NCBI RefSeq assembly: GCF_044704955.1
Contig: NC_091979.1
Location: 244,156,001-244,220,000, forward strand
Direction of reading: 5' to 3'
Source: Pristiophorus japonicus
Taxonomy: Eukaryota
DNA length: 64,000 nt
Shown: positions 40,615 to 64,000 of the stretch, one piece after another
Numbering within the stretch: position 1 is the stretch's first letter
Layout: each line of letters opens with the position of its first letter
Made by a program: the position numbers and the translations under genes
Notes under the pieces: generated by a model
Seen by the model: the letters and a program-made list of their open reading frames with translations, nothing else
Database searches by the model: none
Told to the model about the DNA's origin: nothing

Positions 40615-43600
40615 ATTATTTCATCCTTTGCTTATTGTTATATATGTATACTATAGATATACTCTCTGTATAGTCACTGTATAGTTGCATAAGATGGAGA
40701 CTTGTTTATCGGAGGTACCATCAACAAGGTTCACACTGTATACACTATGCTGGCACCACCAGAGGGTGCAACTGGTGGAGGCCCAGGGGTCACCTGTACA
40801 CCACAGGTACCCAGGTATAAAAGGGAGTCCACCATGTGGTATCCTCACTCTGGAGTTATATTAAATGGACTAAGGTCGCAACAGTTCAAGTACAATACTT
40901 TGCCTTGTGGAGTCATTATCAGAGCATCTAAAGACATAACAATTGGTGACGAGATTATGGACCTTAACGTGAAAATGGCTACCCTCGGTACGTTGCAGCA
41001 GTTCGCCCATGGTGATGATTGGGACGCCTTTGTTGAGAGGCTTGACCATTTCTTCACAGCAAACGACCTGGCAGGCGACAATTGGCCGCACTGGCTGATA
41101 AGCGCAGAGCTATCCTGTTAACCAGTTGTGGGCCCACTGTCTATGGCCTTGTCAGGGACTTTGTGGCACCAGCGAAGACAATGGCTAAGACATACGAGGA
41201 GCTTGTAACACTGATCCAAGAACAACTCAAGCCCAAAGAGAGCATCCTCACAGCCAGACACAGGTTTTACACCCACCAACGGCCCGAAGGCCAGGAAATC
41301 GCAAAATATGCTGCAGACCTCAGGAGGTTGGCGGCACCGTGTGATTTCGGCGACCACCTCACCGAAGCGCTGCGGGATATCTTTGTCGTCGGAATTGGCC
41401 ACGAGGGCCTTCTTCACAGGCTGCGGATACCACAGTCACACTGCAGAAAGCCATCACCATGAGCCAGTCAGATGACTCATCCTCAGGACTCAAACCCGGC
41501 AAGTACTGTACACAGACTGGCACCTGTTAGAGGCTGGGCTGTAGAACGTGAATTTCCTCAGGGGAGAGAGACCAGGCCCCCGAGTCCCTTAACTCTGAGT
41601 CCGCCGAGGGGGGCTAATCGGTTAGCACCATGCTGACGTTGCAGAGGAAATCACCGGGCTTACCAGTGCTGTTTTAAGGGCTATGTGTGCAAAGGGTGCA
41701 GCACAAAGGGCCACCTCCAGCGAATGTGTAAAAGAAATAGGACTCACCGTCTACAAAGGGCCATGAATCCAGCACGGATTATGAAGAGGTGATCAGAGAG
41801 GCAGCTCTGCCCCACGATGAGGTGTACGGAAGGTTCACCTGCACCACAGGATGTTCCCCGTTGAGGATGGAAGTTGAGATAAACGGCGTTCCAGTCTTCA
41901 TAGAGGTGGACATGGGGGTGAGCCAGTCAGTAATGAATCAAGAAGCCTTTCAGAGGCTATGGGACAATCAAATTGAAAGACCCAAGTTGGTCCCGGTTCA
42001 AGCAAAGCTGCACACCTACACCAATGAACTTATCCTAGTCGTTGGTAGTGCGAATGTTAAGGTACCCCATGATGGCGCGGTGCACAGGTTACCCCTATGG
42101 ATTGATGCAGGTGATGGACCAACGCTACTCAGAAGAAGGTGGATGGAGAAGATCCAGTGGAGCTGGGAAGATTTCATCCCTCCAGTGATCGACATCCCCT
42201 GCGCTCAGAGGCAAAGCAAGCCCCCACCTTAGGTTGGATCCGACATAAGAGAGCAGACCAGCACAGCACCCGAGGCACAGACCGCTCAGCATGACTGCGT
42301 GGCGATGATCCAGCTGAGACGACCTGAACGCACCTTCCAGGCTCCAGTGGCAGGACTCCAGAGGAAGAAAATTGGATCCAAAGGCAACTTCCCAGCTTCG
42401 GTGGCAGAACCCGGGGAGAAAAGGATCACAGCAGCCGACATCGTGGATGAAAGAAAGATGGAGCCCAAACCACGAGGTGAAGCGCTGAAGGAAAAGATGG
42501 CGGCGGCCAGACCATGAGGTGCAGCGCTGATGGAGCAACACGTGGTACCAAGCGAAGAAGAGAATTGGGGTAAAGATAGCAAGGCTCTCTTAAAGGAGTC
42601 CAGCAACCCACCACACTTAAAGGGACAGTCCCACATTCTCACTCAATGTTATAACAACTGTGAGCTAAATGTAAAGCTTGTAATTGATGATCAGAGTTTT
42701 ATACATGTAATAACCAAAGAAAAGTCGGGCGATTGCGATCGGAGCTACAGTTTATCTACAATAAGCAATGAAACGTTGCACGATGCAGGATTTCAACTGT
42801 ATTCTGATAATGTAGAGGGCAAACACCCATTGAAAGCACACAGGTCCAGCGGGCTACCCGATGCTGACGTCTGCGCCCCTGGGACCAGAGTGATGAACCA
42901 CGGAGTGTGGCCACAAGCAGCTAAAATAGACAAGCTGCAGAGCAAGCGATCTCAGGAGCGCAACTCACTGGTATCGATACCCTGCTCCTGACCGGCTCCA
43001 GCTCTCAGGGACCCGATGGCACCAACCGTCACGAGCCTGAATGAGCAAACTGTGCTAAGGCACAGCCCCCAGACCCCATCGCCACCAAGGCTACACCCGG
43101 GAACGAAGGGTCACCCGCAACGGTTTTCCCAATTGGGACCGGGACCAGCCAGGATCGCAAATCAAATAACGCCCAGGCAAGCGAGTTAGCTCACTGGGCA
43201 TTGCTAGACGACTGCTCCTCTGGGAGCAGCAGCGACCCGGGGCACAAGGAGAGGACAGGGAGGCCACAGGCATCTGTGAACTTGCCCGACGCGAGGAGTA
43301 ATGGCAAAGGCCCCGAGAGCAGGCAACTCGAGCCAACCGGGTTCCCACTGCCAGCACTGGGCAACGCGCCACCACCAGGCTGCCTGAACACCATCCAGCA
43401 GCTCTGCAACCAGCTTGTTCTCACACACTGGTGCTGACCCCAGCACTGATCCCAAAGATGTACTATCAATGTATCTCACCAGTCAAATGTACTTGCCTCA
43501 CAACTGTACCACAAATGCAATGATGTAAATGCAAATTTCCTTTTCTGGACTTGAATGTATATGAATGTATATGAATGTGATGAGCCACCAGCATGATCTA

Positions 43601-43744
43601 CATGTCGGGGGGAAAATGGATGTATGTAGCCCTGGACACACACATGGATCACACCCAGAACCCACTGAAGCCCCACTGCATCATCAAACCATCCCAACTG
43701 GTAACCACTACCCAACGTTGTGGCAATAAGGACATGGGGGTTAA

Positions 43745-46700
43745 CAGGGATGGCTGGACTGACATATGAGGAGAGACTGGATCAACTGGGACTTTATACA
43801 CTGGAGTTTGGAAGGATGAGAGGGGATCTCATAGAAACGTATAAGATTCTGACTGGACTGGACAGGTTAGATGCGGAAGAATGTTCCCGATATTGGGGAA
43901 GTCCAGAACCAGGGGACACAGTCTTAGGATAAGGGGTAGGCCATTTAGGACTGAGATGAGGAGAAACTTCTTCACTCAGAGAGTTGTTAACCTGTGGAAT
44001 TCCCTGCCGCAGAGAGTTGTTGATGCCAGTTCATTGGATATAGAAACATAGAAAATAGGTACAGGAGTAGGCCATTCGGCCCTTCGAGCCTGCACCGCCA
44101 TTCAATGAGTTCATGGCTGAACATGCAACTTCAGTACCCCATTCCTGCTTTCTCGCCATACCCCTTGATCCCCCGAGTAGTAAGGACTACATCTAACTCC
44201 TTTTTGAATATATTTAGTGAATTGGCCTCAACAACTTTCTGTGGTAGAGAATTCCACAGGTTCACCACTCTCTGGGTGAAGAAGTTTCTCCTCATCTCGG
44301 TCCTAAATGGCTTACCCCTTATCCTTAGACTGTGACCCCTGGTTCTGGACTTCCCCAACATCTAACCTGTCTAAACCCGTCAGAATTTTAAACGTTTCTA
44401 TGAGATCCCCTCTCATTCTTCTGAACTCCAGTGAATACAAGCCCAGTTGATCCAGTCTTTCTTGATATGTCAGTCCCGCCATCCCGGGAATCAGTCTGGT
44501 AAACCTTCGCTGCACTCCCTCAATAGCAAGAATGTCCTTCCTCAAGTTAGGAGACCAAAACTATACACAATACTCCAGGTGTGGCCTCACCAAGGCCCTG
44601 TACAACTGTAGTAACACCTCCCTGCCCCTGTACTCAAATCCCCTCGCTATGAAGGCCAACATGCCATTTGCTTTCTTAACCGCCTGCTGTACCTGCATGC
44701 CAACCTTCAATGACTGATGTACCATGACACCCAGGTCTCGTTGCACCTCCCCTTTTCCTAATCTGTCACCATTCAGATAATAGTCTGTCTCTCTGTGTTT
44801 ACCACCAAAGTGGATAACCTCACATTTATCCACATTATACTTTATCTGCCATGTATGCCCACTCACCTAATCTATCCAAGTCACTCATAGCATCCTCCTC
44901 ACAGCTCACACTGCCACCCAACTTAGTGTCATCCGCAAATTTGGAGATACTACATTTAATCCCCTCGTCTAAATCATTAATGTACAATGTAAACAGCTGG
45001 GGCCCCAGCACAGAACCTTGCGGTACCCCACTAGTCACTGCCAGCCATTCTGAAAAGTACCCATTTACTCCTACTCTTTGCTTCCTGTCTGACAACCAGC
45101 TCTCAAGCCATGTCAGAACACTACTCCCAATCCCATGTGCTTTAACTTTGCACATTAATCTCTTGTGTGGGACCTTGTCGAAAGCCTTCTGAACGTCCAA
45201 ATACACCACATCAACTGGTTCTCCCTTGTCCACTCTACTGGAAACAGCCACAAAAAATTCCAGAAGATTTGTCAAGCATGATTTCCCTTTCACAAATCCA
45301 TGCTGACTTGGATCTATCATGTCACCTCTTTCCAAATGCACTGCTATGACATCCTTAATAATTGATTCCATCATTTTACCCACTACCGATGTCAGGCTGA
45401 CCGGTCTATAATGCCCTGTTTTCTCTCTCCCTCCTTTTTTAAAAAGTGGGGTTACATTGGCTACCCTCCACTCCATAGGAACTGATCCAGAGTCTATGGA
45501 ATGTTGGAAAATGACTGTCAATGCATCCGCTATTTCCAAGGCTACCTCCTTAAGTACTCTGGGATGCAGTCCATCAGGCCCTGGGGATTTATCGGCCTTC
45601 AATCCTATCAATTTCCCCAACACAATTTCCTGACTAATAAGGATTTCCCTCAGTTCCTCCTTCTTACTGGACCCTCTGAACCCTTTTATAGCCGGAAGGT
45701 TGTTTGTGTCCTCCTTAGTGAATACCGAACCAAAGTACTTGTTCAATTGGTCTGCCATTTCTTTGTTCCCCGTTATGACTTCCCCTGATTCTGACTGCAG
45801 GGGACCTATGTTTGTCTTTACTAACCTTTTTCTCTTTACATATCTATAGAAGCTTTTGCAGTCCGTCTTAATGTTCCCTGCAAGCTTTCTCTCGTACTCT
45901 ATTTTCCCTGCCCTAAACAAACCCTTTGTCCTCCTCTGCTGAGTTCTAAATTTCTCCCAGCCCCCGGGTTCGCTGCTATTTCTGGCCAATTTGTATGCCA
46001 CTTCCTTGGCTTTAATACTATTCCTGATTTTCCTTGATAGCCACGGTTGAGCCACCTTCCCTTTTTTATTTTTACGCCAGACAGGATGTACAATTGTTGT
46101 AGTTCATCCATGCGGTCTCTAAATGTCTGCCATTGCCCATCCACTGTCAATCCCTTAAGTATCATTTGCCAATCTATCCTAGCCAATTCACGCCTCATAC
46201 CTTCAAAGTTAGCCTTCTTTAAGTTCTGGACCATGGTCTCTGAATTAACTGTTTCATTCTCCATCCTAATGTAGAATTCCACCATATTATGGTCACTCTT
46301 CCCCAAGGGGCCTCGCACAACGAGATTGCTAATTAATCCTCTCTCATTACACAACACCCAGTCTAAGATGGCCTCCCCCCTAGTTGGTTCCTCGACATAT
46401 TGGTCTCGAAAACCATCCCTTATGCACGCCAGGAAATCCTCCTCCATCGTATTGCTTCCAGTTTGGTTAGCCCAATCTATATGCATATTAAAGTCACCCA
46501 TGATAACTGCTGCACCTTTATTGCATACACCCCTAATTTCCTGTTTGATGCCCTCCCCAACATCACTACTACTGTTTGGAGGTCTGTACACAACTCCCAC
46601 TAACGTTTTTTGCCCTTTGGTGTTCTGCAGCTCTATCCATACAGATTCCACATCATCCAAGCTAATGTCCTTCCTAACTATTGCATTCATCTCCTCTTTA

Positions 46701-47820
46701 ACCAGCAATGCTACCCCACCTCCTTTTCCTTTTATTCTTTCCTTCCTGAATGTTGAATACCCTTGGATGTTGAGTTCCCAGCCCTGATCATCCTGGAGCT
46801 ACGTCTCTGTAATCCCAATCACATCATATCCGTTAACATCTATTTGCACAGTTAATTCATCCACCTTATTATGGATACTCCTTGCATTAAGACACAAAGC
46901 CTTCAGGCTTGTTTTTTTAACACCCTTTGTCCTTTTAGAATTATGATGTAGTGTGGCCCTTTTTGTTTCTTGCCTTTGTTTACTCGGCCTTCCACTATTG
47001 CTTTTTATCTTTCTACCATCTGTTTCTGACTCCATATTACTTCGCCCTGTCTCGCTGCATAGGTAGTTTAAACACTCCCGAACTGCATTAGCAAATGTTA
47101 CCCCCAGGACATCTGTACCAGTCCTGCCCAAGTGCAAACCGTATCTTTTTGTACAGGTCCCACTTCCTCCAGAACTGGTTCCAATGTCCCAGGAATTTGA
47201 ATCCCTCCCTCTTGCACCACTGCTCAAGCCAAGTACTTATTCTAACTATCCTGCTCCCTCTACTCTGCTTAGCACGTGGCACTGGTAGCAATCCAGAGAT
47301 TACTACCTTTGAGGTCCTACTTTTTAATTTAACTCCTAGCTCCCTAAATTCAGCTTGTAGAACCTCGTCCCACTTCTTACCTATATCGTTGGTACCTACA
47401 TGTACCATGATAACTAGCTGTTCACCCTCCCTCTCCAGAATGCTCTGCAGCTGCTCCGAGACATCCTTGACCCTTGCACCAGGGAGGCAACATACCATCC
47501 TGGAGTCTCGGTTGCAGCCGCAGAAACTCCTATCTATTCCCCTTACCATAGAGTCTCCTATCACTATAGTTCTCCCACTCTTTTTCCTGCCCTTCTGTGC
47601 AGCAGAGCCACCCATGGTGCCATGAACCTGGCTGCTGGTGCCAGGGAGTCAATAGGGAGTTAGATATGGCCCTTATGGCTAAAGGGATCAAGGGGTATGG
47701 AGAGAAAGCAGGAAAGGGATACTGAGGGAAAGATCAGTCATGATCTTATTGAATGGTGGTGTGGGCTTGAAGGGCCGAATGGCCTACTCCTGCACCTATT
47801 TTCCATGTTTCTATGTTTCT
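43745..47820 (+). mobile_element. CR1 3' fragment inside the LTR element, itself split by a long reverse CR1
   Basis: 43745-44040 and 47645-47820 join as one CR1 end (…cattggata / …agggagttagatatgg). taacaggga occurs at both junctions. Confidence 0.8.
44041..47643 (-). mobile_element. Long CR1 LINE: part of ORF1 (SGNH esterase-like) and ORF2 (APE + RT), frameshifted
   Basis: ORF1 IVIGDSMVR...[67 protein letters not shown]. (ttctatgt)n tail. Confidence 0.95.
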
Positions 47821-48297
47821 AACAGGGAGAGAGCCAAGCCAAAGCACAGCCAAGGTGCAAGGGCTATTGGCACTTACGGCTGGGGAGAGCGAAGCCAGAG
47901 CACATAGTGCAAAGGTATTGGCACAAAAGACTTGGGGGAGAGTGATGTTATATATGTATACTATAGATATACTCTCTGTGTAGTCACTGTAGAGTTGCAA
48001 AAGATGGAGACTTGTTTACTGGAGGTACCATCAACAAGGTTCACACTGTACACACTATACTGGCACCACCAGAGGGTGCAACTGGTGGAGGCCCAGGGGT
48101 CACCTGTACATCACGGGTACCCAGGTATAAAAGGGAGTCCACCATGTGGTATCCTCACTCTGGAGTTAAATGGACTAAGGCCACTACAGTTCAAGTGCAA
48201 TACTTTGCCTCATGGCGTCATTATCAGAGCATTTAAAGACCTAACACTTATGAATAAGGGCAATAAAATATTGTCCATTCACATGGTTTGAATGGCT

Positions 48298-55422: not shown

Positions 55423-58400
55423 TGTTAAGTATGAAAGAACTCCACAAGACTGAGTACTGTGAGCTAAAACTGATGTGACCTTAGTCTCTTTAATACAACT
55501 CCAGAGTGCCGAAGCAGCCTGGCAGACAACCTTTTATACTCCCTTGCACGAGGTGTGCAGGTGACCCTTGGGCCTCCAACAGTTGCACCCTCTGGTGGCA
55601 AGTCTTACACAGTTACAATGTTTCCATACATAACATCACTCCCCCGCCCCCCAAATTATTTACAAGTTGAGACGATCCGGGGTCCTACATTCCCTGGTTG
55701 ATCGTCCGAGTTAAAACCCTGGCATGGGTGAGTTGGTCGGACCATTGCTGCACTGCGGCGCGGCTGGTCTGATGGGACTGTTGGGAATGGTGGGTTCATC
55801 CTCTTGATTGACAGTGAGGTCGATTGCTGGTTGGGTGTGTGTTGGTGGATCGATGGTGATGTCCTCTTCCAGTTGTTCCTGGCGGTCGGTGAACCGCAGT
55901 TTGGTCTGATCCAAATGGTTTCTGCACGTTTGTCCATAAATACTCCATTCCCCTCCTTGGCCAAGACAGTGCTAGCGACCCATTTAGGACCATGACCGTA
56001 ATTAAGGACAAACACAGGGTCGTTAACATCAATGTCGCGCGATACAGCCGTGCGATCATGGTACATGTTTTGCCGGTGACGCCAGGTTTCCACATGATCA
56101 TTTAGATCCGGGTGGACTAAGGAGAGCCTGGTTTTGAGTGCTCTCTTCATTAACAATTCTGCACAGGGAACCCCAGTGAGCGAGTAGGGTCGCGTCCGGT
56201 AGCTGAGCAGAACTCAAGTTAAGCGGGTCTGCAAGGAGCCTTCCGTCACGCATTTCAAGGTCTGCTTGATAGTTTGGACTGCCCGTTCCGCTTGACTGTT
56301 GGATGGTGGCTTAAACGGGGCGGACCTGACATGCTTGATGCTATTGCGGATCATAAACTTGAATTCCGAGCTTGTGAAACACGGTCCATTGTCACTGACA
56401 AGGATGTCGGGCAAGCCATGGGTGGCGAACATAGCCCGGAGGCTTTCAATGGTGGCAATGGATGTGCTGGATGACATGATTACAACATTCAATCCATTTA
56501 GAGTAAGCGTCCACTACAATTAAAAACATCTTTCCGAGAAAGGGGCCAACAAAATCTACGTGGATCCTGGACCAAGGTTTGGAGGGCTATGACCACAGAC
56601 TCAATGGAGCCTCCCTTGGTGCATTGCTCAATTGTGAGCATGCGGTGCACTGGTGTACGCATGACTCTAAGTCCGAGTCAATGCCGGGCCACCAAACATG
56701 AGACCTGGCTATAGCCTTCATCATGACTATGCCTGGGTGGGTACTGTGTAGGTCGTGTATAAACGTTTCCCTGCCTTTCTTTTGGCAAAACCATGCGATT
56801 ACCCCATAAGAGACAATCCGACTGGATGGACATTTCATCTTTGCGTCGGTGAAACGGCTTAATTTCATGTTGCATTTCATCAGGAACGGCCGACCAGCTC
56901 CCATTAAGGACGCAACTTTTTACAAGTGATAGCACAGGATCCTGGCTGGTCCAGGTCCTGATCTGGCAAGCAGTGACGAGTGACCCCTCGCTCTCAAAAG
57001 CATCCATGACCAGAAGGAAATCTGCGGGCTGCACCATTTCCACCCCGGTAGTGGGCAATGGTAGCCGACTGAGGGCATCAGTACATTCTCCGTGCCTGGT
57101 CTGTGGCGGATAACATAGTCATAGGCAGACAATGTTAGTGCCCATCTTTGGATGCGGGACGAAGCATTGGTGTTTATACCTTTGCTTTCTGAAAACAGCA
57201 AAATGAGCGGTTTGTGGTCAGTTTCAAGCTCAAACTGAAGTCCAAATAGGTATTGGTGCATTTTCTTAACCCCATATACACATGCTAACGCCTCTTTCTC
57301 AACCATATTGTAGGTTCTTTCAGCCTTAGATAGATTTCTAGACGTGTATACAACCGGTTGAAGTTTGCCCAATACATTGGTTTGCAGTAACACACTCCTG
57401 TACATCTCCTGTACGAAGATACACCACAAGCTAGCACTAATCGTTTACACGGATCATGCAGTACAAGTAACTTATTAGAACAAAGTAGGTTTCTGGCCTT
57501 CTCAAAGGCTGTCTCTTGAAATTTACCCCAAACCCAGTCGACACCTTTACGTAGCAATATGTGCAACGGTTCCAGCAAAGTGCTTAACCCGGGTAGAAAG
57601 TTACCAAAATAGTTGAGGAGTCCCAGGAACGAACGCAGCTCCATCACATTCTGTGGTCTGGGTGCATTCTTGATGGCCTCTGTCTTTGAGTCCGTGGATC
57701 TGATGCCATCTGCCACAATCTTTCTCCCCAAAAATTCGACCTCTGGCGCCAGGAAAACACACTTGGAGCGTTTCAGCCTGAGTCCCACTCTGTCTAGTCG
57801 ACTTAGAATCTCTTCCAGCTTGTGCAGGTGTTCGGAGGTGTCACAACCGGTGATCAGGGTGTTGTCTTGAAACAAAACGGTGTATGGAACCGATTTCAGC
57901 AGACTCTCCATGTTCCTCTGGAAGATGGCAGCAGCCGAGCGAATCCCAAAAGAGCATCTGTGGTATATAAACAGTCCTTTGTGCATGTTGATGCACGTCA
58001 ATCTTTTCGAAGATTCAGCCAGCTCTTGTGTCATGTAGGCGGAGATTAGGTCCAACTTGGTGAACGACTTCCCCCCCGCTAACGTTGTGAACAGGTCATC
58101 CATCTTGGGTAGTGGGTACTGGTCTTGTAACGAGACTCGGTTGATCGTTATCTTGTAGTCTTCGCAGATTCTGACCGTGCAATCGCTTTTCAACACCGGA
58201 AGAATCGGACTGGCCCATTCGTTGAACTCGATTGGCGATATGATTCCCTCTCGTTGAAGTCTGTTCAGTTTGATTTCGACTTTCTTCCTCATCATATATG
58301 GAACCGCTCGAACTTTGTAATGAACGGGCCTTGCATCGGGAACTAGATAGATCTGCACCTTGGCACCTGTGAAGTTGCCGATGCCTGGTTCAAATAGTGA

Positions 58401-59360
58401 CGGAAACTTGCTCAGCACTTGGGCGCACGAGGCATCATCCACTGAAGATAGTGCTTTGATGTCGTCCCAGTTCCATCGAATCTTTCCCAGCCAGCTTCTG
58501 CCGAATAGCGTTGGGCCATCGCCTAGTATAATCCACAGTGATAAATCATGCACAGCTCCATTGTGCAATACCTTAACTGCCGCACTGCCAATGACAGGTA
58601 TGAGCTCTTTGATGTAGGTGCGCAGCTCTGTCTGAATCGGGCTCAGTTTGGGCCTTTGTGCCTTGTTGCCCCACAGTTTCTCAAAAGCCTTCTGTTTCAT
58701 AATTGAGTAACTCGCCCCCGTGTCCAACTCCATTGATACCGGAATACCGTTCAATTTGACTTTCAACATGATAGGAGGGCTCTTGGTGGTGAAGGTGTGT
58801 ACCCCATACACTTCTTCCTTGGGTTGAGTTGCCTCTCTTGTTTGTTCTGCGTGGTCCGCGCCGGATCGATCATCCTCTGCCAACTCTGCCACGTGGTGAG
58901 TCGCAGCACTCTTGCACATTCGCTGGAGGTGCCCCATTGTTTCACATCCTTTGCACACGTCGTGCTTGAATCAACATTGATAAGCTCGATGATTACCACC
59001 CCCCGTCCCCCAGCGCTAACATGGTGCTAATGGATTTGCATTCAAGCCCGATGGCGGATTCTGAGTCATCCTAGGTCTTGCAGCTGCAGACGTGTAGGTC
59101 CTGCCATATGCAGTGCTGCCTGCTAGCGACGTTATTTTATGCACAGTACTTGCCAGTGAGCTTCGATGCTGGGAAGATATTTGTCTGGTATTATCGCTCA
59201 TGGATATGAATGCCTGGGCTATCGTGATGGGCTTGCTCAGGTCTAGGGATTCGGCGGACAGCAGCTTGCAAAGAATGACCTCGTGGCCGATGTCCCACAG
59301 CATTTCCCCCCAAAATCCATCAAATTCGCAAGTTCCCTCAAGGCGCCTCAGGTCGGCGAT
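55423..59360 (-). mobile_element. Gypsy LTR retrotransposon (3' LTR, IN, RH, RT, PR, part of gag), 5' part interrupted
   Basis: LTR 55423-55635 and adjacent PPT. Integrase (LHSTHPGI..MK..ARS.VWWP, VSDNGP.F.S.EF, SNSQAERAVQT). RNase H (LETDHKPL). RT (KLDL.SAY, FQDN.LI). PR MELDTGAS. CKGC...GHL knuckle. Confidence 0.93.
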
Positions 59361-62300
59361 GTGTATCTGTAAAGCATGCACTCCCATGTTCCGCCAACAG
59401 GGCGCTCAACCCCTGAAGTCCCAAGGGATCCCAGCATCCCTTGGGAGCACTGTATATAAGCCAGCTCCTAAGGCCTGTTCCTCACTCTGGAGTGTCCTTT
59501 TGAAGACTGAGGTCACTGTTACTTTAACCTCCGTGTGCAGCCTCATCTGTGTTAGGAACACAATAACTGGCGACGAGAATACGAATCCAACGCAAAGATG
59601 CAGCAAACTGTGGGCATCCTGGAGAAGTTCTCGGAGGGTGAGGACTGGGAAGCCTATGTCGAACGGCTAGACCAGTACTTTGTAGCCAACGAGCTGGACG
59701 GAGAAGGAAGCGCTGCAAAAAGGAGAGCGGTCCTCCTCACAGTCTCCGGGGCACCGACCTACAGCCTCATGAAGAATCTTCTGGCTCTGGTGAAACCCAC
59801 AGATAAGTCGTATGAGGAGCTGTGTACACTAGCATCGGGAACATCTTAACCCGAGGGAGAGCGTGCTGATGGCGAGGTATCGGTTCTACAAATGCCAGCG
59901 ATCTGAAGGTCAGGAAGTGGCGAGCTATGTCGCCGAGCTAAGGCGACTTGCAGGACAATGTGAGTTGGCTGGCTACCTGCAGCAAATGCTCAGGGACTTT
60001 TTTGTACTGGGCATTGGCCACGAGACCATCCTACGAAAACTTTTGACTGTAGAGACACTGACCCTCAGTAAGGCCATTGCGATAGCACAGACGTTTATGT
60101 CCACCAGTGATAACACCAAACAAATCTCTCAGCACACAAGTGCGAGCAATGTTCATAAATTAATTGGAACTGTGTTTGCGAGCAGAAATGTACAGGGCAG
60201 ATCCCACGAGTCTGCAACTGCCAGCAGGCCTCAGGTGACCCAGATGACTCAGAGTCCCCAACAAAGGATGAATGCAAGGCAATTCACACCTTGTTGACGT
60301 TGTGGAGGCTTCCATTCAGCCTATTCATGCCGCTTCAAAGGATATGTTTGCAAGAGCTGTGGAACAATGGGGCACCTCCAACGAGCTTGCAAACAAGCTG
60401 CAAGCTCTGCAAAACCTGCTAACCACCACGTGGCAGAGGAAGATTGGCCCATGGTGGATCAAAGCAATTTAGAGCCTCAGAGAGAGGAGGCAGATGCTGA
60501 AGTACACGGGTGCACATATTTTCGACGAAATGTCCACCTATAATGCTAAACGTAAAATTGAATGGCTTACCCGTAGCCATGGAACTGGACACTGACGCTA
60601 GCCAATCCATCATGAGTAAAAAGATGTTTGAGAGACTGTGGTGCAACAAGGCATTCAGACCAGCCCTGAGCCCTATCCACACGAAATTGAGAATGTACAC
60701 CAAAGAGCTCATCACTGTCCTGGGGAGCGCCATGGTCAAGGTCACCTATGAGGGCACAGTGCACGAATTGCCACTCTGGATTGTCCCGGGCGATGGCCCC
60801 ACACTGCTTGGAAGGAGCTGGCTGGGCAAAATCCGCTGGAACTGGGATGACATCCGAGTGCTATCACATGTCGATAAGGCCTCATGTACCCAGGTTCTTA
60901 ACAAATTTCCTTCCCTTTTTGAGCCAGGCATTGGAAACTTTTCCGGGGCGAAGGTGTGGATCCACTTGGTCCCAGAGGCATGACCCATTCACCACAAGGC
61001 GCGAGCGGTACCTCACATGATGAGGGAGAGAGTGGAAATCGAGCTGGACAGGCTGCAACGCGAGGGCATCATCTCTCTAATAGAATTCAGCAAGTGGGCC
61101 AGCCCGATTGTTCCAATACGCAAAAGTGATGGCACGGTCGGGATTTGCGGCGATTATAAAGTAACTATTAATCATTTCTCGCTACAGGACCAATACCTGC
61201 TCCCTAAGGCAGACGACCTATTTGTGACGCTGGCAGGAGGCAAGACTTTCACCAAGCTCGACCTGACTTCGGCCTAGATGACGCAGGAGCTGGAGGAGTC
61301 TTCGAAGGGCCTCACCTGCATCAACACACACAAGGGACTGTTCATCTACAACAGATGCCCATTTGGAATTCGGTCGGCTGCAGCGATCTTCCAGAGAAAC
61401 ATGGAGAGGCTACTCAAGTCGGTACCACACACAGTGGTCTTTCAGGACGACATATTGGTCACGGGTCGGGACACCGCCGAGCACCTACAAAACCTGGAGG
61501 AGGTCCTCCAGCGACTGGATCGCGTAGGGCTGGGGATGAAGAGGTCGAAAAGCGTCTTCATGGCAACAGAAGTGGAGTTTTTGGGGAGAAAGATCACGGC
61601 GGATGGCATTCGGCCCACAGACGCCAAGACAGAGGCTATCAGGAATGCGCCCAGGCCACAGAACGTCACAGAGCTGAGGTCATTCCTGGGACTCCTCAAA
61701 TATTTTGGTAACTTCCTACCGGGGTTAAGCACCCTCTTAGAGCCCCTACATGTGTTATTGCGCAAAGGTGAGAACTGGGTATGGGGAAAAAAACCAAGTA
61801 ATTGCTTTTGAGAAAGCCAGAAACATTTTATGCTCCAACAAGCTGCTTGTATTGTATAACCCGTCTAAAATACTTGTGCTAGCATGTGACGCGTTGTCGT
61901 ACGGAGTCGGGTGTGTATTACAACAAGCTAACATTGCGGGGAAGTTGCAACCTGTCGCCTATGCTTCCAGGAGATTGTCTAAGGCCAAGAGGGCCTACAG
62001 CATGATTGAGAAAGAGGCATTAGTGTGTGTGTTCGGGGTAAAGAAAATGCATCAGTACCTGTTTGGCCTCAAATTTGAGCTGGAAACCGATCACAAGCGC
62101 CTCACATCCCTGTTTGCTGAAAACAAGGAGATAAATACTAATGCCTCAGCCCACATACAAAGGTGGGCACTCGCGCTATCCGCGTATAACTATACCATCC
62201 GCCACAGGCCAGGCACCGAGAACTGTGCAGATGCTCTCAGTCGGCTACCATTGCCCACCACGGGGGTGGAAATGGCGCAGCCTGTAAACTTGTTGATGGT

Positions 62301-62588
62301 GGCGCAGCCCGCAGACTTGTTGATGGTCATGGAAGCGTTTGAAAATGATAAATCACCTGTCACGGCCCGCCAGATTAGGACTTGGGCCAGCCAAGATCCT
62401 CTGCTGTCCCTAGTCAAAAACTGTGTACTGCATGGGAGCTGGGCCAGCATCCCGTTGAAATGCAAGAGCCAATCAAGCCATTCCAGTGGCGAAAGGACGA
62501 GCTGTCCATTCAGGCAGACTGCCTGTTGTGGGGCAACCGCGTAGTGCTACCAAAAAACGGCAGGGAGACGTTCATCTCGGATCTCCAC
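59360..62588 (+). mobile_element. Gypsy LTR retrotransposon (5' LTR, gag, PR, RT, RH), interrupted before integrase
   Basis: LTR ~59360-59565 and PBS TGGCGACGAG at 59568. Gag from 59598. PR MELDTDAS, RT VFQDDILV, RH LACDA.SYGVG...ETDHK. Several stops and frameshifts. Confidence 0.93.
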
Positions 62589-63452
62589 TGTCATGTATCT
62601 TACATTATTATATATAACTGTATCCTAACATGCTATACATGACTGTAATAAGATATGCCCTGTAACCACCAGCATACCTTACCACCAGGGGTGCACTTGC
62701 AAGAGACAGCTATATAAGGACAGGTCTCAGGCAAGTGCAGCATTGCAGAGCTGTGAAATAAAGGTGCAGGTCCAGAGTGACCTTGACTTCACTACACGCC
62801 TCGTGTGAATCTGTACTGAGGGGACAGGACTTTACAGTGGTGACGAGTTACGGGATTACAGAATCCACAGAATGGCGAACAACGGATCAGATGAAAAGTA
62901 CAATGCGGGAGACAATTGGGAGGACTTTATAGAAAGGCTCCAGCAAAGCTTTGTAACCAAAGACTGTAAGGCAACGATAAGGCAGTCAAGAGAAGAGCCC
63001 ATATCTTGACCAGCTGTGGCTCGAAAACATACGCTTTAATGAAGGATCTGTTGGCACCCGAGAAACCAGCAAGCAAGTCGTTTGAAGAATTGAGCACACT
63101 GGTAAGAGACCACCTGAAGCCAGCGAGCAGCCTACACATGGTCAGACACAGGTTCTACAACTACAGACGCTGTGTGGGCCAGAGCATACCCCACTTTGTG
63201 GCGGAACTTCGGAAGTTGGCTAGTTTATGTGAGTTCTCCGATGAACTGAGAAGAGAAATGCTGAGAGACTTTTTCATTGAAGGAATAGGCCACGCAGGCA
63301 TATTCCGAAAGCTCATAGAGACCAAGAACCTGACCTTAGAGGCAGCAGCACTGGTTGCACAGACATTCTTGGTAGGGGAAGAAGAAACGAGGTTGATTTA
63401 TAATGCAGGCACGACAACTAATGAAATATTGGAACAAGAGGTTCACAGCACA
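62589..63452 (+). mobile_element. Gypsy element: 5' LTR and gag
   Basis: LTR 62589-62836 (TG...CA) and PBS TGGTGACGAG at 62838. Gag MANNGSDEKYNAGDNWEDFIERL from 62872, continuing in ORF 63006. Confidence 0.9.
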
Positions 63453-64000
63453 GAGAGGCGGGAGTCGAGAGAGGCAGCGGCCTATAAAAGGCTCAGCAGT
63501 CCGGGGAGAGTCGAGAGAGGCGGGAGTCGAGAGAGGCAGCGGCATATAAAAGGCTCAGCAGTCCGGGGAGCGTCGAGAGACGCGGGAGTCGAGAGAGGCA
63601 GCGGCCTATAAAAGGCTCAGCAGTCCGGGGAGCGTCGAGAGACGCGGGAGTCGAGAGAGGCAGCGGCCTATAAAAGGCTCAGCAGTCCGGGGAGCGTCGA
63701 GAGAGGCAGCGGCCTATAAAAGGCTCAGCAGTCCGGGGAGCGTCGAGAGAGGCGGGAGTCGAGAGAGGCAGCGGCCTATAAAAGGCTCAGCAGTCCGGGG
63801 AGCGTCGAGAGAGGCGGGAGTCGAGAGAGGCAGCGGCCTATAAAAGGCTCAGCAGTCCGGGGAGCGTCGAGAGAGGCGGGAGTCGAGAGAGGCAGCGGTC
63901 TATAAAAGGCTCAGCAGTCCGGGGAGCGTCGAGAGAGGCGGGAGTCTAGAGAGGCAGCGGCCTATAAAAGGCTCAGCAGTCCGGGGAGCGTCGAGAGAGG
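63452..64000 (+). repeat. 62-bp tandem array, one TATA box per unit (runs off the window)
   Basis: Unit gagagaggcgggagtcgagagaggcagcggcctataaaaggctcagcagtccggggagcgtc. TATAAAA at 63483, 63545, 63607, 63669, 63715, 63777, 63839, 63901 and 63963 (one 46-bp unit). Confidence 0.95.

Follow-up and report, generated by a model that had tools for sequence, protein, structure and literature searches.

The LTR element at 40636-48246 of the window, the 64,000-nucleotide stretch of Pristiophorus japonicus contig NC_091979.1 analysed here, raises the question of what is encoded behind the protease of a Gypsy element that has no working polymerase, and why the reading frame should stay open there. It belongs, as a decayed copy, to a large family of non-autonomous Gypsy retrotransposons with the layout LTR-PBS-gag-protease-X-PPT-LTR, X being the tail in question, and a length of ~3.5 kb once a nested CR1 block is removed. 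On the forward strand, the 5' LTR (40636..40941, 306 nt, TG..CA) and the 3' LTR (47946..48246) are identical at 283 of 301 ungapped columns (94%, K2P 0.063), and the target-site duplication CTTAT is present on both sides (40631..40635 and 48247..48251). The primer-binding site at 40944..40954, TGGTGACGAGA, is the complement of the tRNA-Ser(GCT) 3' end with one mismatch in this copy, and tRNA-Ser(GCT) genes with matching 3' ends are present in the genome (ARAGORN called 3 of 5 loci). A polypurine tract is located at 47932..47945. The earlier note on this DNA, which had described a complete LTR element primed by this tRNA, is confirmed in this respect. The 3' non-coding interior is split into 43414..43750 and 47820..47931 by a minus-strand CR1-type LINE block (43751..47819), which inserted later and is missing from other copies. 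The 9-nt duplication TAACAGGGA, one unit of which forms the last 9 nt of the first part, flanks the block and is single in uninterrupted copies, as expected from the nesting already proposed.

Between the primer-binding site and this non-coding interior lie gag with its zinc knuckles (40957..41780), the aspartic protease (41816..42172), which in the family shares the frame of gag, and X (42173..43413, 413 codons), in frame with both. In this copy gag is broken by shifts near 41083, 41421, 41471 (a deletion) and 41749 and by a stop near 41635, and the active-site triad of the protease is altered; of the 36 copies of subfamily A that can be read there, 22 have D-T/S-G. The gag and protease of the window ORFs gave weak Pfam matches with E values of 0.016-0.03, below the cut-off. 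Gag and protease are present, and no catalytic motif of reverse transcriptase (RT), RNase H or integrase was found in the element, in line with the first reading of the locus. X itself is interrupted in this copy by two stops, at 42230 and 42515, and by a shift near 42965. It had been read as a run of ~300 codons to ~43190, broken only by single stops, which needs correction: the segment 42992-43189 is off-frame because of the copy's own frameshift near 42965, and the family frame goes on in the ORF 43045-43437 to a family stop column at 43411, giving 413 codons in the subfamily of this copy.

The copy is representative in what it lacks. In 39 loci chosen by LTR and gag alone, X follows the protease in 37 and pol in none, so that X is not single-copy and the siblings are without normal pol; the internal deletions among these loci all have different breakpoints. 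The family is multicopy with paired LTRs, and of 25 full copies 17 have target-site duplications with at most one mismatch, which upholds the proposal that it moved in this form. Six subfamilies, A, B, C, D, E and F, were aligned with 42, 29, 20, 20, 25 and 25 copies, respectively (161 in total); D and F are the younger ones. The subfamilies appear to recombine, and since their ancestry is also common, they are not six independent tests. The family has the Ty3/Gypsy hallmarks of paired TG..CA LTRs, short target-site duplication, primer-binding site and polypurine tract, as well as the Gypsy-homologous order of a gag zinc knuckle followed by an aspartic protease. The catalytic RT, RNase H and integrase motifs of an autonomous Gypsy are missing from it.

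The tail had been regarded as an unknown extension with no resemblance to pol. Comparison of the sequences leads to a different view, in which X is a shrunken, degenerate pol. Collinear, in-frame relics are distributed along it: RT motif E (the primer grip) and the start of the thumb at 42308..42545, each tandemly duplicated in frame, followed by RNase H and the RNase H-integrase linker at 42788..43168. The resulting order of protease, RT, RNase H and linker fits PR-RT-RH-IN, with integrase itself absent. The RNase H/linker relic was matched to pol by hhalign with a probability of 86% (E 4.7e-6), against 0.1% for the reversed control, and by nhmmer (E down to 2.8e-11). In subfamily E, a 67-residue stretch of X has 45-46% identity to pol (E 1e-10), and the reversed controls gave no match. 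Catalytic motifs are present in 20-24 of 30 pol copies versus 0-1 copies in any X set, and hydrophobic residues make up 21-26% of X versus 34% of pol. The hhalign comparison of X with pol was not significant for B, C and F (probability 0.7%, 0.3% and 0.2%), and nhmmer recovered pol relics in few B and C copies and in none of D or F; pol ancestry of the B, C, D and F tails therefore rests on their being homologous to those of A and E. All subfamilies retain the KM..PRG duplication, D only weakly.

That X could be an unrelated host or viral domain, captured and fused to Gag-protease, is very improbable. Such a capture would suit the failure of any database family to match X: Pfam searches of the window ORFs and of natural stop-free X stretches gave no family for it, and a PDB sequence search returned 0 matches. 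The best ESM Atlas score, 0.76, was under the shuffled-control level, the top cluster, with a retrotransposon peptidase family, being a lead only; an AlphaFold model with pLDDT 29, built from an 8-row alignment, shows little. The 189-nt insert in C and F and the repeat tail of D, which are without traced origin, would also be in keeping with capture. Against it, the relics of pol run collinear and in frame along X, which refutes the reading for the bulk of the tail, and the sole protein matches (5 among 1.84 billion proteins and 1 in another search) are all shark gene models containing pieces of this same element.

The most striking property of the tail is its open frame. Majority-stop columns number zero in the gag-protease frame of every subfamily, in agreement with the earlier proposal of one continuous frame through Gag, protease and X, against the following counts in the other five frames: 0/413 versus 8-20 in A, 0/367 versus 6-19 in B, 0/464 versus 6-24 in C, 0/276 versus 2-8 in D, 0/367 versus 5-18 in E and 0/366 versus 8-28 in F. 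The tail of D, however, is GC-rich, so that stops are scarce in all its frames, and it resembles X only weakly. Most of the commonest stop columns in the tail, the highest of them shared by 39% of copies, fall at CpG sites and reflect decay after insertion. Simple inertia, by which X inherited the frame of pol and master lineages escaped stops by chance, would agree with the near-neutral amino-acid drift over most of X. However, neutral substitution at the measured divergence predicts 5-11 stops in X, and none is seen (P(0) 4e-3 to 8e-6 per comparison). Inside X, the indels that became fixed between subfamilies preserve the frame, being divisible by three or offset by one another (between B and C, 6, 3, 189, then 2+1 about 100 nt apart, and 33), whereas four in five private indels break it; multiples of three account for 40 of 194 private indels and, downstream of the stop, for 1 of 10 indels between A and B. 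In view of the stop counts and the indel pattern inertia is largely refuted, and hardly any credence is left to it. In subfamily C the 3' part of X is even in a shifted frame, yet has no stop until 13 nt short of the LTR; across subfamilies the distance from stop to LTR is 13-511 nt.

It should be noted that the encoded amino acids were not kept in the same manner. Transition-corrected dN/dS was used, since the NG86 baseline came out near 0.55-0.6, and the within-family neutral baseline was 0.5-1.05 (about 0.8). Between subfamilies, net dN/dS is 0.15-0.28 for gag and 0.22-0.49 for protease, values that place both under purifying selection. The expectation of a ratio below 1 throughout thus held for these two and failed for X over its full length (net 0.62-1.01); the first ~140 codons are mildly constrained, only among A, B and C (0.36-0.55, with intervals reaching 0.68-0.97). 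The middle and last thirds gave 0.37-1.8, where distal alignments are uncertain and some pairs saturated. By these measures most of X undergoes near-neutral amino-acid drift, even through compensated frame shifts. With gag and protease conserved and X drifting yet stop-free, selection therefore seems to hold the frame and not the protein, while the mild constraint on the first ~140 codons implies that part of the tail may have a role as protein or RNA.

Two readings build on that first part. According to one, unlikely but deserving attention, the tail is needed as a protein, a flexible stand-in for Pol in which the duplicated RT primer-grip/thumb relic is functional and the rest is a length-tolerant spacer; it might aid dimerisation of the embedded protease, keep particle geometry or dock the helper Pol. 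The low ratios in the first third among A, B and C, with third positions changing faster, and the retention of the KM..PRG duplication are in favour, and protein function likewise predicts an open frame. However, the same part is unconstrained in pairs with E or F (0.69-1.05), a further 250 codons stayed open while drifting freely and shifting frame, and the database searches of Pfam, PDB and Atlas yielded no match. According to the other, which we consider improbable, X was kept for cis-acting signals, either for packaging/dimerisation or as YY1-like DNA sites, the open frame being a secondary need. The first third is the best conserved at the DNA level (82% A-B), its synonymous divergence is below that of gag in 8 of 10 subfamily pairs, and AAGATGG motifs, which would be the YY1-like sites, recur at fixed spacing in A, B and D; two such AAGATGG(C) motifs lie 39 nt apart inside the RT relic of the present copy. 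Nevertheless, AAGATGG also reads in frame as K-M, and signals alone do not account for stop avoidance. The cis-signal reading is compatible with an explanation at the RNA level and may be its missing half.

We lean towards such an RNA-level explanation, in which the tail was held stop-free as translation to near the 3' end of the RNA aided RNA survival and packaging, with RT and integrase likely borrowed. The family would have encoded a single Gag-protease-tail protein, the tail being a collapsed, non-catalytic pol. Gag and protease would act in cis on their own RNA, because only benefit to that RNA explains their conservation in an element unable to copy itself. Pol-bearing relatives, which share LTR core, primer site and polypurine tract, would contribute their single-frame Gag-Pol to jointly assembled particles, and related complete elements would supply RT and integrase. 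An early stop would be penalised at the RNA level by one of two routes: an untranslated tail of 1.2-1.7 kb would invite nonsense-mediated decay, or co-translational packaging would be lost. Long 3' UTRs are reported to expose retroviral RNA to decay (PMC2925335). This explanation gives no reason why the tail was not removed by in-frame deletion.

A candidate type of helper lies in the same window, namely the pol-bearing Gypsy at 55423..59400 on the minus strand. Over 160 nt its LTR core has 77% identity to that of the element, in support of the sharing noted previously. Its family, P, presumably Mag/K02A2.6-like, is tRNA-Ser-primed and resembles the X family in its single gag-pol frame, primer-binding site, polypurine tract, protease and LTR core (72-80%), but its RT, RNase H and integrase motifs are of the intact type. 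Copies are of similar age (median pairwise identity 0.92 in P versus 0.90-0.94). P is not the direct parent, and in a knuckle-protease tree A, B and C form a clade separate from it (99/96). Among the loci examined in genome searches, with the best 40-114 candidates scored, there was no closer pol-bearing parent and no proven helper.

The closest known counterpart is mouse IAP 1delta1, in which, according to the accounts drawn on here, a gag-pol deletion created one in-frame fusion ORF, Pol is needed in trans, and the highly successful element has a Gag-Pol fusion reported to act in cis (PMC6466679, PMC7411935). The shark family, which is likewise non-autonomous, also has an ORF that fuses Gag in frame to a deleted Pol, and on indirect evolutionary evidence this ORF may promote retrotransposition in cis; unlike IAP 1delta1, a class II mouse endogenous retrovirus, it is homologous to Gypsy elements of the same genome. 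The label TR-GAG, previously attached to the element, does not fit, since the definition published for plants (Chaparro et al. 2015, PMC4350172) asks for similarity to Gag and for none to protease, RT, RNase H or integrase. Shared with TR-GAG, as described in that source, are a length <4 kb, LTRs, primer-binding site, polypurine tract, 5-bp target-site duplication, a single Gag ORF, no working RT, RNase H or integrase and multiple copies, whereas the conserved protease, the 370-460-codon pol-derived tail and the vertebrate host are different (PMC4350172). Zebrafish BHIKHARI Bik-1/Bik-2 and chicken ENS-1 are also vertebrate, non-autonomous, Gag-encoding LTR elements that presumably rely on the pol of a partner, but they belong to a retroviral lineage and are gag only, no protease or pol relic being described in the account available (PMC12067270).

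An earlier description of a gag-protease-X family or of a stop-free degenerate pol was not found in the open literature, although a Repbase or Dfam entry may exist. The usual classes for non-autonomous LTR elements are non-coding, gag-only and single-domain. For annotation, the family is a warning that the long open tails become part of gene models in sharks, among them those of a bile-acid transporter and a tetraspanin-4-like protein, and that a long ORF beside a protease with no database match need not be a new domain. With its conserved gag and protease and dead, open pol, selection on frame becomes separable from selection on protein, and the choice between RNA decay and a protein tail is made testable with reporters. 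The family also provides an evolutionary counterpart to the one experimental case, IAP 1delta1, of cis translation driving the success of a defective element. It is possible, if not quite probable, that a radiation of vertebrate Gypsy parasites made pol "frame-only", with 280-460 codons kept open and the amino acids nearly disregarded. If true, the frame was upheld long enough to wipe out nearly all sequence likeness to pol, and frame-only pol would be natural genomic proof of selection on end-to-end translation of an element's own RNA.

The placement of the studied element at 40636-48246 was confirmed by its LTR pair (5' LTR 40636-40941; 3' LTR 47946-48246), each member starting with TG and ending with CA, by the TSD CTTAT adjoining both outer ends, and by a PBS and a PPT starting at 40944 and 47932, respectively. 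The LTRs are identical at 283 of 301 ungapped columns (K2P 0.063). Searching by pattern from the PBS end located tRNA genes, with tRNA-Ser(GCT) in three of five fetched loci (ARAGORN). A CR1-type block (43751-47819) carrying its own 9-nt duplication was inserted later, and the surrounding repeats are presumably of shark type. Private frame shifts of this copy were observed near 41083, 41421, 41471, 41749 and 42965, so that the family frame moves into the ORF at 43045-43437, and X, the tail following the protease at 42173-43413, comprises 413 codons in subfamily A rather than the approximately 300 proposed in an earlier note based on sequence alone. In subfamily A, the gag frame runs without shared stops about 90 codons further upstream, within the 5' LTR (window 40693-40956), possibly by chance. 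Elsewhere in the window, two pol-bearing Gypsy elements lie back to back at 55423-63400. The one on the minus strand is missing its 5' LTR, and beyond the pair come a third gag start and an array of 62-nt tandem units at 63328-64000.

When X was used as query against its own genome, scoring of the best 40 of 9,939 candidates gave matches at 84-93%, and X was located between protease and PPT-LTR in the 30 retained loci. As a guard against circularity, 39 further loci were chosen by 5' LTR and gag start alone. X was present in 37, two loci ending earlier, and pol followed the protease in none of the 39, which are the copies most similar to that of the window, such that a more distant autonomous parent would fall outside the set. 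Where pol was matched, in five of these loci, the match comes from a separate element, nested or flanking, and the breakpoints of internal deletions all differ. Among 25 copies having both LTRs, a 5-bp TSD with at most one mismatch was observed in 17, and LTR divergence had a median of 0.060 (range 0.034-0.099). The paired LTRs and TSDs demonstrate that the pol-less element multiplied in its present form, as the note had proposed for a Gag-PR-X family. Subfamily A copies often house other nested subfamilies, B and D among them, and one A copy is inserted inside a C copy (loci L084, L078, L089 and L092).

X was compared, by profile and pairwise, with the pol-bearing neighbour family, for which 30 copies were used and which also forms a single open gag-pol frame. 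Relics of pol, collinear and in the pol frame, can be observed in the order protease-RT linker, RT motif E/primer grip and thumb start (the latter two each tandemly duplicated), a weak connection-domain trace, RNase H start, and RNase H end with the linker to integrase. The hhalign probability was 86% for A (E 4.7e-6) and 97% for subfamily E (E 4.9e-10), with reversed controls at 0.1%; subfamily E copies share 45-46% identity with pol over 67 residues, and nhmmer recovered the relic of the linker in all 25 copies of E and in 36 of the 37 of A, with blank reversed controls. Direct matches to pol were not significant for B, C and F and absent for D; B, C and F can be aligned with A and E along X, and D is linked by a short motif only. 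RT palm, RNase H active-site and integrase motifs were not found in X, nor did Pfam, ESM Atlas, PDB sequence search or AlphaFold yield a family, structure or confident fold. By sequence comparison, X is degenerate pol, contrary to the earlier view that it bears no likeness to pol; its capture from a foreign source, against which these ordered relics speak, is very improbable. The tail of subfamily E (L200-L224), A-like at its start and B-like at its end, suggests a mosaic that may derive from recombination between co-packaged RNAs. Other features of the tails were also observed. C and F have in common an in-frame, Asn/Lys-rich 189-nt insert. Subfamily D (L180-L199; e.g., L092 1222-4089, minus strand) is a younger gag-protease family with LTR identity mostly 94-99%, its tail open for 276 codons with an in-frame 27-residue tandem repeat grown into long arrays in some copies. 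AAGATGG(C) motifs, which we take to resemble YY1 sites, keep a fixed 39-nt spacing at window 42455-42506 and in the otherwise diverged tails of A, B and D. Exons made of X occur in public shark gene models P0004, P0007, P0008 and P0009 (a bile-acid cotransporter, a tetraspanin-4-like protein, an Ig-domain protein and an unnamed one), probably as annotation artefacts and possibly by exonisation.

The open frame was assessed by counting stops per column in aligned copies. Subfamily A was represented by 42 copies from 69 loci plus the window, large-insertion copies and duplicates being left out, and five further pol-less subfamilies were traced via nested diverged elements and two database matches (B, 29 of 30 loci; C and D, 20 each; E and F, 25 each). 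In the 42 A copies, one frame without shared stop runs from the LTR through gag and protease into X, as far as window 43411. Across the tail, majority-stop columns numbered 0 in the gag-protease frame of every subfamily and 2-28 in each other frame, which bears out the single continuous Gag-PR-X frame predicted earlier. Single natural copies are free of stops over protease and X for 462, 384 and 402 codons, the longest such stretches in D and F reaching 613-679 codons; the commonest stops (up to 39% of copies) lie mostly at CpG columns. Inertia as the cause of the open frame is scarcely credible, the analytic neutral expectation at the measured between-subfamily divergence being 5-11 stops (P(0) 4e-3 to 8e-6), although the subfamilies are related, A, B and C forming one clade (support 99/96), and the stop tests are therefore not independent. 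Private indels are divisible by three in 40 of 194 cases and A-B indels behind the stop in 1 of 10, while fixed indels within X keep or restore the frame; one A-B stretch of +52 and +2 nt may reflect misalignment or, instead, a shift that was compensated.

Net between-subfamily dN/dS, with within-family decay subtracted and transitions corrected, was 0.15-0.28 for gag and 0.22-0.49 for protease; values within families were 0.5-1.05. In the first third of X the net ratio was 0.38-0.55 among A, B and C and 0.69-1.05 in pairs with E or F, and in the remainder 0.37-1.8 with wide intervals; a ratio below one, the check proposed in the note, is supported for gag and protease but not for X overall, where mild constraint is confined to the first part in pairs among A, B and C. 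Between B and C, the reading frames part for some 30 codons and then come together again, and in C the last part of X lies in another frame, which stays free of stops up to 13 nt from the LTR. Together with the dN/dS values, these switched stretches indicate that the frame of X is conserved and its sequence mostly is not. That the first part of X, where the lower ratios occur, acts as protein is a tentative alternative, and retention of X for cis-acting signals appears doubtful.

The reading we favour, with somewhat better than even confidence, is that an early stop in the tail would be penalised at the RNA level. The stop-to-LTR distance is 13-511 nt across subfamilies and 39 nt in the pol-bearing family; an early stop would lengthen it to 1.2-1.7 kb. 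A long 3' UTR is a documented liability for retroviral RNA (PMC2925335). This RNA-level penalty leaves the absence of in-frame tail deletion unexplained. Since Gag and protease are conserved in an element devoid of RT, they would benefit their own RNA in cis; the relatives have Gag-Pol as a single frame, so RT and integrase would come from particles assembled jointly with helper Gag-Pol. The pol-bearing family, similar in age and having LTR core, PBS and PPT in common with the studied one, is a candidate helper type only.

In its working, the family is closest to mouse IAP 1delta1; there, the fused Gag-Pol reportedly acts in cis and needs Gag and Pol in trans (PMC6466679, PMC7411935). The label TR-GAG-like is apt for size and layout; however, the definition (PMC4350172) excludes protease and pol similarity, both of which are present here. 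Bik-1/2 of zebrafish, of retroviral type, carry gag only (PMC12067270), and single-domain elements are listed for sunflower (PMC9784723). In the literature searched, which did not extend to repeat libraries, subscription journals or supplements, no earlier account of the family or of a degenerate pol kept free of stops was found. The feature is real and its first reading was right in part. Its element class is a familiar one, and the clear, testable peculiarity lies in a pol relic that stays open in six subfamilies although its sequence drifts.
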